From positions 1-64,000 of the forward strand of contig CAZPQW010000018.1 of NCBI GenBank assembly GCA_964588985.1: a DNA stretch of 64,000 nucleotides, read 5' to 3'. Shown here piece after piece: positions 24,816 to 29,664 of this stretch; the first letter of the stretch is position 1; each line of letters opens with the position of its first letter. The DNA comes from an uncultured Solirubrobacteraceae bacterium (lineage in GTDB: Bacteria > Actinomycetota > Thermoleophilia > Solirubrobacterales > Solirubrobacteraceae). The notes below the pieces were generated by a model, which saw only the letters and a list, made by a program, of their open reading frames with translations, was not told the origin of the DNA and searched no databases. Made by a program: the position numbers and the translations under genes.

Positions 24816-27104
24816 ATGGGCGACGCCGCGAGCACGCGCTATCAACCGCATGAGATCGAGGCCCGCCGCCAGGCCGCGTGGCGCGAGCGCGACGCGTTCA
24901 GGACGCCGCCGCTGAGCGAGGAGCAGCCGCACCTCTACATCAAGCCCTCGGCGCCGTTCACGTCGGGCAACGTGCACATCGGGCACGTGCGCAGCTACTC
25001 GATCGGAGACGCGTACGCGCGTTTTCGCCGCGCGCGCGGCGAGGCGGTGCTGTTCGCGTTCGGCTTCGACGCGTTCGGCCTGCCGGCGGAGCTCGGCGCG
25101 ATCGCCGGCGGGGAGTCCCCCAGCGAGTGGGTCAACCGCTGCGCGGAGCACATGACGGGACAGCTGGACAGGCTGGGCTTCTCGTTCGACTGGGAGCGCT
25201 CGTTCCTGAGCTCCGACGCGAACATGTACCGCTGGTCGCAGTGGCTGTTCCTGGTGCTGCTGGAGGCGGGCCTGATCTACCACGGCAGCGGCAACGTCGA
25301 CTGGTGCGACAACTGCGAAACGACTTTGGCGTCGATCCAGGTCGAGGCGGGCGGCACGTGCTGGCGCTGTCATGGACCGGTCAGGTTGATCGAGCTGCCG
25401 CAGTGGTATCTGCGCATTAGCGCCTATCTGCAGGAGAACGATGCTCGTTTGCAAGAGCGCGCGGACAGCGGGATCTGGGACGAGGTGTCGCTGGCGTCCC
25501 AGCAGATCGTGTTGGGACGGGTCGACGGCGTGGAGGTGGAGATGCGCGCCACCGACTCCACGGGCGACGTGCTGACGGTGTTCACGCCCTACGGCGACGC
25601 GGTGTCGGAGGCGCGCTTCGTGCTGCTCTCCGCGCGCCATCCCGACGTCGAGAGCTGGGCATCGGACCCGGCGGTGCTCGAGCAGCTGGAGCAGCTGCGC
25701 GCGGGCGGCTGGGAGCGCAGCGCGCGCGAGGCGGAGACGATCCCGGTGATCGACACCGGGCGTACGGTCGCGGGTCCGGACGGCGTGGCGCTGCCGGTGC
25801 TGGTCTCGCCTGTAGTGGACTCGCGCTTCGGGCCGACGGCGGTGCTGGGCGTGCCCTCGCGCGACCGTACCGACGAGGTGCTCGCGGGGCGGCTGGGGAT
25901 CGAGGTGCCGGAGGACGAGGCTGACGAGGCTGCGCGGGGCGCCGGAGCGAGCGATGGCGTCGGCCCCTCCCCCACGGCCCAAGCCGCGGTGCGCTACCGC
26001 GCGTTCGACTTTGTGGTCTCGCGCCAGCGCTCGTGGGGCACGCCGATCCCGATCGTGTACTGCGACTCGTGCGGCACGGTGCCGGTGCCGCGCGATCAGC
26101 TGCCGGTGCTGCTGCCGCTGGACATCCACCCGACGGGGACTGGCAACCCGCTGGCGGAGATGGAGGAGTTCGTGAACACGACGTGCCCGACGTGCGGCGG
26201 GCCGGCGCGACGTGAGACGGACACGCTGGACTGCCACTTCGACGCGCTGTGGCTGTGGGTTCCCGCGTGCGTTCCGCCCGAGAATCGCGAGGACACGTTG
26301 GAGGAGATATTCGCGCTGGCGGACCTGCGCCACTGGCTGCCGTCGGAGCGCCTGGTGGCGGGCTCGGACAGCGGCAACTTCGTGTTCGACCAGCGGACGG
26401 TGACGAAGGCGCTGCGCGACATCGGCCCGCTGTCGTTCCTCGAGGATGGCGAGCCGTTCGCGGGTTGCCTGTTCCACGAGATGGTGATCAGCGAGGGGCG
26501 CAAGATGAGCAAGCACCTCGGCAACGTGGTCGACCCGGACGAGCTGATCGCGCGCTACGGCGCGGACACGGTGCGTCTGGCCGTTCTCTACGCCGCGCGC
26601 CCCCAGCGGTCGTTGAACTGGAGCGACTCGGCGGTGCTGCGCTGCCACAGGTTCCTGACGCAGGTGTGGGAGTACTCGCACGCGCGGATCGCGCGCGCCG
26701 CCGCCGTGGACCCCGAGGTCGCCGCGGCGGATACGGCCGTGGGCGAGGACGGCGAGCCGGTGAGAGACAACACGGAGCACTTCAGGGCGCAGCTGTCGAA
26801 GTGGTGCGCGAACGGCGTGGAGAAGATCACCGAGGACATGGAGGCGCTGGAGATGCACAGCGCGGTGCGCAACGTGATGCGCCTGTTCGACCGCATCAAG
26901 GACTTCGAGAAGCGAGTGCTCGCAAGACAGGACGAGCTGAGCCGCGCGAACCTCGACGCGCTGCTCGACGCGCTCGGCGTGCTCGCCCAAACCCTCGGCC
27001 CGTTCGCCCCGCACATGGCCGAGGAGCTGTGGATGACACTGGGAAACACGGAGCACAACACACAGACGCCGTGGCCAGGCGTATCGTCTCAGGTACTCGC
27101 ATGA
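24816..27104 (+). CDS. Divergent leucyl-tRNA synthetase paralog (class Ia aaRS-like)
   Basis: HIGH, FDAFGLPAE, SRQRSWGTPIP, RETDTLD, KMSKH, PFAPHMAEELW; Leu-pocket residues replaced; ends right after the anticodon-binding domain. Confidence 0.88.
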   Translation: MGDAASTRYQPHEIEARRQAAWRERDAFRTPPLSEEQPHLYIKPSAPFTSGNVHIGHVRSYSIGDAYARFRRARGEAVLFAFGFDAFGLPAELGAIAGGESPSEWVNRCAEHMTGQLDRLGFSFDWERSFLSSDANMYRWSQWLFLVLLEAGLIYHGSGNVDWCDNCETTLASIQVEAGGTCWRCHGPVRLIELPQWYLRISAYLQENDARLQERADSGIWDEVSLASQQIVLGRVDGVEVEMRATDSTGDVLTVFTPYGDAVSEARFVLLSARHPDVESWASDPAVLEQLEQLRAGGWERSAREAETIPVIDTGRTVAGPDGVALPVLVSPVVDSRFGPTAVLGVPSRDRTDEVLAGRLGIEVPEDEADEAARGAGASDGVGPSPTAQAAVRYRAFDFVVSRQRSWGTPIPIVYCDSCGTVPVPRDQLPVLLPLDIHPTGTGNPLAEMEEFVNTTCPTCGGPARRETDTLDCHFDALWLWVPACVPPENREDTLEEIFALADLRHWLPSERLVAGSDSGNFVFDQRTVTKALRDIGPLSFLEDGEPFAGCLFHEMVISEGRKMSKHLGNVVDPDELIARYGADTVRLAVLYAARPQRSLNWSDSAVLRCHRFLTQVWEYSHARIARAAAVDPEVAAADTAVGEDGEPVRDNTEHFRAQLSKWCANGVEKITEDMEALEMHSAVRNVMRLFDRIKDFEKRVLARQDELSRANLDALLDALGVLAQTLGPFAPHMAEELWMTLGNTEHNTQTPWPGVSSQVLA

Positions 27105-28449: not shown

Positions 28450-29664
28450 CTGCAGGGGGCACGGCAATCGTGGCGGGCGGTCGGGGCGTATGCGCTCGCG
28501 GCGGCCGCGAGCCAGATGCTGTGGCTGACGTTCGCTCCGATCACGACCGCGAGCGCGCACCACTTCCACGTCTCCGAAGCGACCGTGGGGTGGCTGTCGG
28601 AGGTGTTCCCGCTGGTGTACGTGCTGCTGGCGATCCCCGCGGGGATGGCGCTCGACCGCTGGTTCCGTCCGGCGTTGATCGCGGGCGCGACGCTGACGGC
28701 GCTCGGCGGGCTGGTGCGCCTCGGTGGGGATGGGTTCGGCGTGGCGTTGGCGGGCCAGGTGCTCGTGGCGGTGGGCCAGCCATTCGTGCTGAACGCGATC
28801 ACGAAGCTCGCGGGCGAGTACCTGCCGGCGGAGAAACGCCCGGAGGGGATCTCCTACGGCTCGGCGGGCATCTTCGGCGGGATGCTCCTCGGGCTCGGGC
28901 TGGGTCCCGTGTTGGGCAGCTCCGGCAACCTGCACACGCTGCTGTTGGTCAACGCCGTCTTCGCGAGCGTGGCGCTGGTGGCGCTCGCCGCGGCTCTGCG
29001 CGCGCCTGGGATCGGCGGCGAGCACGAGGACACGCTGGAGCCGAGCGGCCTGCGTGCGGTGTGGAACGACCGCCTGATCCGCAACGTCGCGGGCGTGTCG
29101 TTCCTCGGCTTCGGCGTGTTCGTGGCGGTGACGACGTGGCTTCAGGCGCTGCTCAGCCACTCGGGCGTGTCCTCCGACACCGCCGGCGGGCTGCTCGTGG
29201 GCATGGTCGTGGTGGGGATCGTAGGCTCGGCGGTGGTGCCGGCGGCGGTCGCGAGACGCGGACAGACCTTTGGGCTGATGCGCGTCTCGGCGCTCGGCGC
29301 GTCGTTCGCGTGCCTGATGCTCGCGACCCTGGACTGGCTCCCCGGCTTCGCGGTGGCGGTGGCGCTGATCGGCTTCCTGCTGATCACGAGCCTGCCGGTG
29401 ATGCTCGAGCTGACCGAGCGGCGGGCGGGCGTGAACGGCGGCAGCGCGACGGCGCTGATGTGGATGGCCGGCCAGGGCGGCGGCATCGTGATCGCGGTGA
29501 TCGTGCAGGTGGTGGTCCACCACCCCACCGTCGCGTTCGTGCTGATGGCGGTGGCCGCGGCGGGCGCGCTGCCTTTGATCGACGCGGCGTCGCGGGTTGC
29601 GGAGGCTGAGGATCTGGGCTTGGCGCAGGCCGATGAGGCGATCACGCTACGCGTCGGCGCCTAG
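28450..29664 (+). CDS. MFS transporter
   Basis: About 12 hydrophobic segments, G.ALDRW motif-A-like loop; start uncertain (CTG 28450 sits 6 nt after GGAGG). Confidence 0.85.
   Translation: MQGARQSWRAVGAYALAAAASQMLWLTFAPITTASAHHFHVSEATVGWLSEVFPLVYVLLAIPAGMALDRWFRPALIAGATLTALGGLVRLGGDGFGVALAGQVLVAVGQPFVLNAITKLAGEYLPAEKRPEGISYGSAGIFGGMLLGLGLGPVLGSSGNLHTLLLVNAVFASVALVALAAALRAPGIGGEHEDTLEPSGLRAVWNDRLIRNVAGVSFLGFGVFVAVTTWLQALLSHSGVSSDTAGGLLVGMVVVGIVGSAVVPAAVARRGQTFGLMRVSALGASFACLMLATLDWLPGFAVAVALIGFLLITSLPVMLELTERRAGVNGGSATALMWMAGQGGGIVIAVIVQVVVHHPTVAFVLMAVAAAGALPLIDAASRVAEAEDLGLAQADEAITLRVGA

Follow-up and report, generated by a model that had tools for sequence, protein, structure and literature searches.

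Repurposed paralogs of aminoacyl-tRNA synthetases are known for CysRS, IleRS, LysRS, GluRS, HisRS and SerRS. Here we describe a LeuRS-like gene paired with a ThrC-like gene in a 64,000-nucleotide (nt) stretch of contig CAZPQW010000018.1 from an uncultured Solirubrobacteraceae bacterium; this stretch is the window throughout, coordinates are those of the window, and its G+C content is ~70%. For LeuRS itself, the table of a 2022 review (PMC9437257) lists the archaeal LeuRS-I and LeuRS2 as duplicates, has a dash under synthetase-like proteins, and contains no LeuRS-derived protein with a non-translational role. The same review gives SbzA as the IleRS-like enzyme of SB-203208/altemicidin biosynthesis and counts PoxA among synthetase paralogs. 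The literature that we searched, which is thin in subscription journals, yielded no bacterial LeuRS-derived protein with a non-translational function, although absence is not thereby proven, and in the same, equally thin literature we found no synthetase-like gene coupled to a ThrC-like gene. A first-pass annotation of this DNA, which knew of no described system with this architecture, agrees with that search. The conserved two-gene core is real and undescribed, and a case can be made for its likely chemistry.

The core consists of the following two genes:

24816..27104, + strand: LeuRS-derived class Ia synthetase paralog (P0001), 762 amino acids (aa), recognized by its open reading frame (ORF), TIGR00396, its motifs, and PDB matches of its AlphaFold2 model
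27101..28429, + strand: ThrC-family fold-type II pyridoxal phosphate (PLP) enzyme paralog (P0002) with an N-terminal Cys4 zinc ribbon, 442 aa, recognized by PF00291 and TIGR00260

We propose, with about even confidence and from sequence evidence, that the two enzymes act in one pathway, in which a non-leucine amino acid is made or converted and then adenylated, ready to be handed to an acceptor. The PLP enzyme would supply or transform a non-leucine alpha-amino acid, the LeuRS-like enzyme would activate it as the aminoacyl-adenylate, and the aminoacyl group would then be passed to a small molecule, an RNA or a protein. The two genes overlap at 27101-27104 (gcATGAgt), where ATG is the ThrC-like start and TGA the LeuRS-like stop, an ATGA overlap that the first-pass annotation had reported and the sequence confirms; translation of the two would be coupled through it. 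The open frame of the ThrC-like gene extends further upstream into the LeuRS-like gene.

Both members of the pair are additional copies, since the same genome carries a canonical leuS and a hom-thrC-thrB operon elsewhere; the reading of the first-pass annotation had presupposed such housekeeping copies. Canonical leuS lies on two contigs, C17:72958-73770 (the N-terminus) and C10:1-1725 (the rest), broken only by an assembly gap. It scores 599.9 bits on the leuS family model, above the cut-off, and its translation shows MLPYPSG, HIGH, AVPAHDERD, GGVEHAILHLMYARF, KMSKS and the C-terminal domain; GGVEHAILHLMY is among its motifs. The genes hom, thrC and thrB stand together at C12:89256-91931; the ThrC-like copy of the window sits behind the LeuRS-like gene and not with hom/thrB. 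A third ThrC-type gene (C9:20070-21404), with an N-terminal zinc ribbon and 46% identity to the window copy, is separate from that operon and has unrelated neighbours. In a class-wide sample of 301 genomes, 143 have relatives of this C9 type (37–50% identity).

To characterize the LeuRS-like protein, we compared it with Neisseria gonorrhoeae LeuRS and 96 representatives, and assessed conservation across P0001 and 80 orthologs of 67–88% identity. On TIGR00396 (bacterial Leucine--tRNA ligase) it scores 451 bits, short of the 548.4 cut-off, and its alignment to the 843-position model breaks off at position 778. The protein retains the HIGH region, the aspartate of GFDAFGLPAE, two zinc knuckles, and KMSK. 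HIGH (residue 54) and KMSKH (residue 563) are invariant in all 81 sequences, as are APFTSG, H54, G56, H57, D85, all 13 residues of AGSDSGNFVFDQR, and RKMSKH. Both the ATP site of a class I synthetase and the Asp that binds the alpha-amino group are thereby preserved. Around these catalytic elements the enzyme is rebuilt. SAPFTSG takes the place of canonical MFPYPSG, and GGxEHAxxHLLYxRF has become AGSDSGNFVFDQR; by published LeuRS structures, both canonical motifs belong to the leucine pocket. The CP1 editing motif TTRPDT reads TPYGDA and varies among orthologs, and of the editing-site residues only P347, D350 and D353 are still conserved (invariant or nearly so). Full invariance is seen at 45% and 53% of positions in the two halves of the Rossmann fold, falling to 24% in the helical domain and 13.5% in CP1.

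The protein is also truncated. Bacterial LeuRS needs its C-terminal domain to hold tRNA-Leu, and here that tRNA-binding domain is absent: 8 residues follow alignment position 755, versus ~70 or 150 in canonical rows, and N. gonorrhoeae LeuRS aligns only as far as residue 811 of its 877. We discarded the leucine-specific domain as a distinguishing trait, as the insertion of the N. gonorrhoeae enzyme is absent from P0001 but likewise from most canonical rows. An AlphaFold2 model built from 39 sequences (pLDDT 89, pTM 0.88) finds bacterial LeuRS as its best PDB matches (TM ~0.8), and the LeuRS fold, CP1 included, is intact in that model. The first-pass description of a remodelled synthetase copy holds: the pocket is replaced, the editing motif degenerate, the C-terminal domain missing, and the family score below cut-off. 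We read this pattern of conservation as that of an adenylation site under selection, with a fixed specificity for something other than leucine and with editing abandoned; by its motifs, the LeuRS-like protein probably activates a different amino acid.

The ThrC-like gene is a lineage-specific duplicate of a zinc-ribbon ThrC-like PLP enzyme. P0002 matches PF00291 and scores 208.2 bits on TIGR00260, above the cut-off of 167.1; on NF006050 (PRK08197, the zinc-ribbon threonine synthase), it scores 251.7 bits and the C9 copy 278 bits, both below the cut-off of 303. The PLP lysine and the STGN loop are retained, and SYKDR, CVSTGNVGTAV, NITLRPFYAEGAKT and AAGGTLSS are invariant in 77 sequences. Relative to classical ThrC, SFKDRG has become SYKDRV, STGNT has become STGNV, NSxNPxRxEGQKT has become NITLRPFYAEGAKT, and GNAGN has become AAGGT; by the Thermus thermophilus structure, the classical motifs form the phosphate site. 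The housekeeping thrC at C12 has the classical motifs, and in the C9 zinc-ribbon copy they are altered in almost the way seen in the window protein. These changes thus characterize the parent family and, by themselves, are no evidence of a new substrate.

Could the pair be ordinary isozymes, a second LeuRS of low activity, for stress or resistant in the manner of AgnB2, beside a second threonine synthase? LeuRS is the best family and fold match of P0001, P0002 passes the TIGR00260 cut-off, and the Joint Genome Institute names relatives of P0001 'leucyl-tRNA synthetase'. NCBI, however, calls them merely 'class I tRNA ligase family protein', and the replaced pocket residues (their replacement invariant), the missing C-terminal domain and the score below the curated cut-off all speak against a working LeuRS, while threonine synthesis has its own operon and a resistance copy must keep leucylation. 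We consider ordinary isozymes quite unlikely. Self-resistance of the AgnB2 type was rejected as improbable because P0001 has neither the leucine pocket nor the C-terminal domain and a resistant LeuRS must still leucylate.

We next turned to the distribution of the pair, for which three samples were used: the 80 best species-representative loci (67–88% identity, all labelled Solirubrobacteraceae or Solirubrobacterales), 60 relatives of which 36 are other genomes of the window's genus (g1), and the class-wide sample of 301 genomes. LeuRS-like matches of at least 64% identity are present in 35 of the 36 other genus genomes, 27 of them unbroken and 8 split in two, in some cases with a stop; the remaining genome (G019, 61% complete) has more distant LeuRS-like copies only. 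In the class-wide sample, LeuRS-like proteins above 50% identity appear only in g1 (2/2) and in two genomes of a second genus, g3, and ThrC-like proteins above 80% only in g1 (2/2), all others being of the C9 type at no more than 47%. The ThrC-like gene lies directly downstream of the LeuRS-like gene in 79 of the 80 related loci, two of them truncated where the contig stops. All 67 loci with a placeable start have the 4-nt overlap; of the other 13, 12 have unplaced starts and one has no ThrC-like gene. That exception, L061, is a second LeuRS-like copy (3914935-3917175), and the other LeuRS-like copy of its genome (G349) has a ThrC-like gene directly behind it at C1:3669375-3670704. This G349 ThrC-like gene reads in two frames (residues 1–235 and 231–441), a frameshift or an assembly error.

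At the window locus, the pair is transcribed divergently from guaB3, as first annotated; the neighbour and the region between are:

23457..24650, - strand: guaB3 (IMP-dehydrogenase-related), divergent neighbour, given for context (TIGR01304)
24651..24815, no strand: divergent intergenic region between guaB3 and the LeuRS-like gene, 165 bp, defined from the sequence

The identity of guaB3 rests on 533.9 bits on TIGR01304 against a cut-off of 342.1, and the gene is syntenic in 77 of the 80 related loci. Beyond it on the minus strand follow guaA, rplM, rpsI, glmM and glmS. This housekeeping neighbourhood, together with presence throughout one genus, looks like core physiology of the lineage rather than a sporadic antibiotic cluster.

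The pair also persists outside this neighbourhood. Four metagenome contigs (L122, L126, L127 and L131) keep it, with LeuRS-like proteins 59–61% and ThrC-like proteins 65–67% identical to those of the window; guaB3 and the other window genes used as queries have no match there. The search pattern used for the metagenomes is common to canonical LeuRS: 12 of its 80 loci (L120–L131) belong to the family and the other 68 are canonical, at 28–35% identity. A GtrA-like gene stands directly upstream of the pair in L126, L127 and L131. In L127 Pfam identified an ATP-binding cassette exporter, an alpha/beta-hydrolase and a Na/H exchanger among the neighbours, and the neighbours in L122 are a PMT-type glycosyltransferase, a methyltransferase, an M29 peptidase and a formiminotransferase. 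In a metatranscriptome run (X24), contigs are 90–92% identical to the window over parts of 26027-26497 and 27947-28104; we did not count them as evidence of expression, as the sequences come from relatives and such libraries can contain DNA.

In a 52-row tree, all ThrC-linked proteins form a single clade of 16 rows (support 99), and the pairing therefore has one origin. The next branch beside this clade holds proteins of g3 linked to an HMGL-like synthase (support 83). Trees were computed with FastTree, whose support values are local only, from alignments made with the fast setting of MAFFT. A single origin, with most co-locations inside one conserved syntenic block, is what would be expected if the two genes were neighbours by descent only, with unrelated functions. 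Yet the pair has stayed intact through a move into different genomic surroundings, the 4-nt overlap is present wherever the start could be placed (67 of 67), and both genes are lineage-specific duplicates with the same narrow distribution; we regard mere neighbourhood as very unlikely. A link that arose once, survived relocation and was kept is fair, though not independent, evidence of shared function. Co-location in other genomes, which the first-pass annotation had expected for three genes, therefore extends to the LeuRS-like/ThrC-like pair (79 of 80 loci and the four metagenome contigs) but not to the transporter gene that follows it, matched in one locus of the 80.

To place the LeuRS-like protein among its relatives, we scanned 1.84 billion representative sequences with HMMER. 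The window protein belongs to a clade of 25, apart from canonical LeuRS (support 99 among 97 full-length rows). Members of this clade are short, 24 of the 25 having at most 795 aa, and all 25 are without the C-terminal tail; most carry a motif of the type GSD....FDQR. ESM Atlas clusters of 734–764 aa are annotated 'class I tRNA ligase family protein' or 'leucine--tRNA ligase family protein', and their taxa are mostly Actinomycetota, with one Pseudomonadota. HIGH, KMSKS or both are missing from at least 8 of the 25 (P0140, P0142, P0147, P0152, P0153, P0195, P0196 and P0233), and these, judged by their motifs, are probably non-catalytic.

Elsewhere in the clade, the LeuRS-like gene keeps different company. 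In g3 (L112, L114) a LeuRS-like gene 56–58% identical to that of the window follows an HMGL-like synthase of 389–410 aa, which falls below all curated isopropylmalate-synthase and homocitrate-synthase cut-offs and in which no LeuA_dimer domain was detected. LysX-, LysY- and LysZ-like genes are nearby (L112:10886-16574 and L113:1838-9302 in genome G043; L114 in G038). G043 additionally has an ornithine/diaminopimelate decarboxylase, an aminotransferase, an ATP-grasp protein of the L-amino-acid-ligase type and a glutamine amidotransferase (GATase), and a second, degenerate LeuRS-like gene (645 aa) lies ~14 kb away with the aminotransferase/ATP-grasp/GATase group. The g3 arrangement resembles an amino-acid pathway of the carrier-protein type with ligases attached. 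On a metagenome contig (L121:5632-9960), a LeuRS-like gene (47% identical) is followed directly by a VioC/GntD/clavaminate-synthase-like Fe/2-oxoglutarate hydroxylase and then by an ArgG-related protein, whose 277 bits on the argininosuccinate-synthase-related model NF038212 are below cut-off; an AraC regulator and a glyoxalase-family gene stand further downstream. A 2-oxoglutarate-Fe dioxygenase gene is upstream of the LeuRS-like gene in L129, and second copies in g1 (L107, L108 and L110, the three checked of five fetched) face an isochorismatase-family gene. L120, L123 and L111 have no telling neighbours of the LeuRS-like gene. In this small sample, a theme of recurring neighbours across the clade is enzymes that make or modify amino acids.

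These relatives bring a different role into view, that of a regulatory or scaffolding subunit like HisZ, which would bind an amino acid (with or without ATP) and control the neighbouring enzyme without any ligation. The partner would be the ThrC-like enzyme here and, in g3, the HMGL-like synthase that has no regulatory domain. HisZ too is without catalytic motifs, as are the eight or more short-clade members named above; the recurrent partners are paralogs of committed-step amino-acid enzymes, and translational coupling would give a fixed stoichiometry. A pure sensor, however, has no need of the catalytic motifs that are invariant in 81 of 81 proteins of the ThrC-linked clade, and we judge a regulatory role to be fairly unlikely.

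A tRNA-dependent route has structural features on its side. Here the LeuRS-like protein would charge a tRNA or tRNA-like RNA with a non-leucine amino acid, and the aminoacyl-RNA would be converted by the PLP enzyme, in the style of SepRS/SepCysS or SelA, or be used by a non-translational transferase. The bacterial LeuRS fold is kept, including CP1 and the helical domain (pLDDT 89, TM 0.8 to LeuRS-tRNA complexes), as are the editing-site residues D350, D353 and P347, invariant or nearly so; archaeal LeuRS-I, as described in PMC9437257, binds tRNA-Leu and forms the adenylate without aminoacylation. The C-terminal tRNA-binding domain is gone, however, and 17 loci scanned contain no dedicated or recurrent tRNA gene beside the LeuRS-like gene. 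TTA codons, moreover, fall mainly in leucine columns (11 of 16), with no sign of recoding. Taking these points together, we think such a route unlikely.

A more specialized version would be a private aminoacylation system, in which the ThrC-like enzyme makes a non-canonical amino acid and the LeuRS-like enzyme loads it onto an RNA for non-standard use. The tRNA or tRNA-like acceptor would have to be recognized without the C-terminal domain, and its use would lie outside normal decoding or in rare decoding. We give this version only a slim chance. Were it true, the pair would be a bacterial, LeuRS-based counterpart of SepRS/SepCysS or of the pyrrolysine logic, and the wider short LeuRS-like clade a toolbox of such enzymes with different pockets.

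TTA recoding was examined and rejected. Among 267,437 codons of conserved genes from the 80 loci there are 16 TTA, 11 of them in leucine-majority columns; of the others, four share one variable C-terminal column and one is in a variable column. For the control codon CTA, 236 of 278 are in leucine-majority columns.

The genome also contains odd tRNAs away from the window. In addition to a normal tRNA-Leu(UAA) of 87 nt, there is a second tRNA(UAA) at C5:104171-104243, 73 nt long, class-I-shaped, with A73 and without a long variable arm (Rfam tRNA, 65.2 bits). Full-length copies of it were found in 20 of the 36 other g1 genomes and in none of 24 genomes of other families; all 20 fetched copies keep the anticodon, and the anticodon stem shows compensatory changes. 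The tRNA lies 30 nt upstream of a very divergent ArgRS-like gene of 557 aa and opposite a cytochrome P450 gene, in a locus at C5:102470-105814. The encoded protein has an HVGH motif and ArgRS as its best PDB match (E 1e-9), and Lys/Orn N-monooxygenase-like and acyl-CoA-dehydrogenase-like genes are near. All five fetched loci share the tRNA/ArgRS-like/P450 arrangement. The 73-nt tRNA goes with the ArgRS-like gene and not with the LeuRS-like/ThrC-like pair; as a partner of the LeuRS-like protein it was rejected as unsupported, and that it belongs to another synthetase-like gene counts against the tRNA-dependent route. A 97-nt tRNA-?(Ser|Leu) with the four-base anticodon ggag, called by ARAGORN at C27:31243-31339 (- strand), may be a tRNA-Ser or tRNA-Leu that was folded wrongly, or else something unusual.

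Several observations weigh against the two-enzyme pathway as we propose it. The retained CP1 fold and helical anticodon-binding-like domain fit a tRNA acceptor better than a small molecule, and the loss of HIGH and/or KMSKS from at least 8 of 25 clade members means that the family is not uniformly catalytic. Other clade members have neighbours that are unrelated or of no note. Within the ThrC-linked group, the two genes are 170–740 nt apart, without overlap, in the four metagenome contigs, and a single origin with conserved synteny makes most of the 80 co-locations inherited rather than independent events. The ThrC-like protein passes the curated TIGR00260 cut-off, its departures from classical ThrC are common to a widespread parent family, and by sequence it could be an ordinary isozyme. 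The conserved neighbourhood holds only two genes, and no acceptor can be read from it. A joint pathway, the direction of flow through it, adenylation, the substrate and any acceptor are what we infer. The proposed two-enzyme pathway is drawn from established observations: the anatomy of the proteins, their status as extra copies, the conservation of the catalytic site, and the conserved adjacency of the genes.

Downstream of the pair lies a transporter gene of the major facilitator superfamily (MFS):

28321..29664, + strand: MFS transporter (PF07690/MFS_1), start uncertain

The encoded protein scores 107.4 bits on PF07690 against a gathering score of 33.4. Candidate starts are GTG 28321, which gives a 109-nt overlap with the ThrC-like gene, CTG 28450, and the first ATG at 28513; the gap of about 20 nt originally described applies only if CTG 28450 is the start and fails for the other two. 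No terminator-like site lies between the ThrC-like and MFS genes, and one lies at 29685-29707, 3′ of the MFS stop. The MFS gene is probably co-transcribed with the pair at this locus. It is nonetheless a local addition outside the conserved unit, matched in only one of the 80 related loci (L039), although a ~91% identical contig from a run that is probably DNA (X23) carries it too. Export by this MFS protein is hence not part of the conserved system. The three-gene operon of the first-pass annotation accordingly shrinks to a conserved unit of two genes, and its proposal that this transporter exports the product falls with the absence of the gene from all but one locus.

Pfam and NCBIfam assign the three genes as LeuRS-like, ThrC-like/PALP and MFS_1, and G+C at third codon positions is 0.90–0.92 for the LeuRS-like and MFS ORFs, a value that identifies both as coding. 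An Rfam scan of 23000-33000 returned no T-box and no riboswitch, only RNase P RNA and three weak, chance-level matches, and no sigma-70-like consensus site was found within 24400-30800. At 30048-30551 (- strand), 400 nt downstream of the MFS gene, is a gene for a YbaK/ProX-type aminoacyl-tRNA editing-domain protein (PF04073, 86.5 bits). It is matched in none of the 80 related loci, so its nearness to a synthetase paralog looks coincidental. Ordinary housekeeping genes follow, namely RNase P RNA class A (32307-32640, - strand, 215.8 bits) and the genome's only tRNA-Leu(GAG) (33487-33574, + strand), which flank lexA (32719-33447, - strand).

The ThrC-linked proteins form one branch of a sizeable, mostly actinobacterial clade, with a conserved adenylation site, a new pocket and a fixed PLP partner, and this branch runs throughout a common soil and rhizosphere genus. 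The identity of the amino acid and of its acceptor could reveal a new core metabolite, or an RNA or protein modification, of the Thermoleophilia. As a natural case of pocket re-specification in a class Ia enzyme, the LeuRS-like protein would also be useful for synthetase engineering.

Among described LeuRS duplicates, LeuRS-I of Sulfolobaceae and LeuRS2 of Halobacteria resemble the window protein in being duplicated, with a disrupted editing domain and an altered C-terminus, but are archaeal and, in the account given by PMC9437257, still act on leucine. The window protein is instead of bacterial type, has an invariant pocket motif unlike theirs, and is partnered by a PLP enzyme. AgnB2, the agrocin-84-resistant LeuRS (PDB 5ah5), is likewise a second bacterial copy and a structural match of the model (rank 22, TM 0.80), but it is a working LeuRS solved with tRNA-Leu, whereas the window protein has neither the leucine pocket motif nor the C-terminal domain. 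HisZ is comparable as a synthetase paralog that partners an amino-acid biosynthetic enzyme, and some clade members are, like it, without catalytic motifs; HisZ is of class II, however, and the window protein keeps all its catalytic motifs.

Closer parallels come from ligases with non-tRNA acceptors (MshC, SbzA and PoxA type), for the window protein, too, is a paralog beside a housekeeping enzyme and has lost a tRNA-binding element. SbzA is a class Ia paralog that likewise exists in addition to the housekeeping synthetase, and it reportedly transfers an amino acid to a target other than its tRNA. By description, it differs in being IleRS-derived and part of a sporadic antibiotic cluster, whereas the window gene has a housekeeping neighbourhood, genus-wide presence and a ThrC-like partner. 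MshC, the CysRS-derived ligase of mycothiol, is a class I paralog that serves actinobacterial core metabolism by joining an activated amino acid to a small molecule; it keeps its parental cysteine specificity, whereas the parental pocket of the window protein is replaced, and the MshC model TIGR03447 gives only 18.6 bits here (cut-off 485), a marginal similarity around KMSKS. PoxA, also known as EpmA, has EpmB (YjeK) as its partner. PoxA/EpmA is a class II paralog of LysRS, its partner is an aminomutase, and its acceptor, EF-P, is known; in these respects it stands apart from the window pair. Nevertheless, EpmA with EpmB offers the same logic that we propose for the LeuRS-like and ThrC-like enzymes, a synthetase paralog that ligates an unusual amino acid made by an enzyme encoded nearby.

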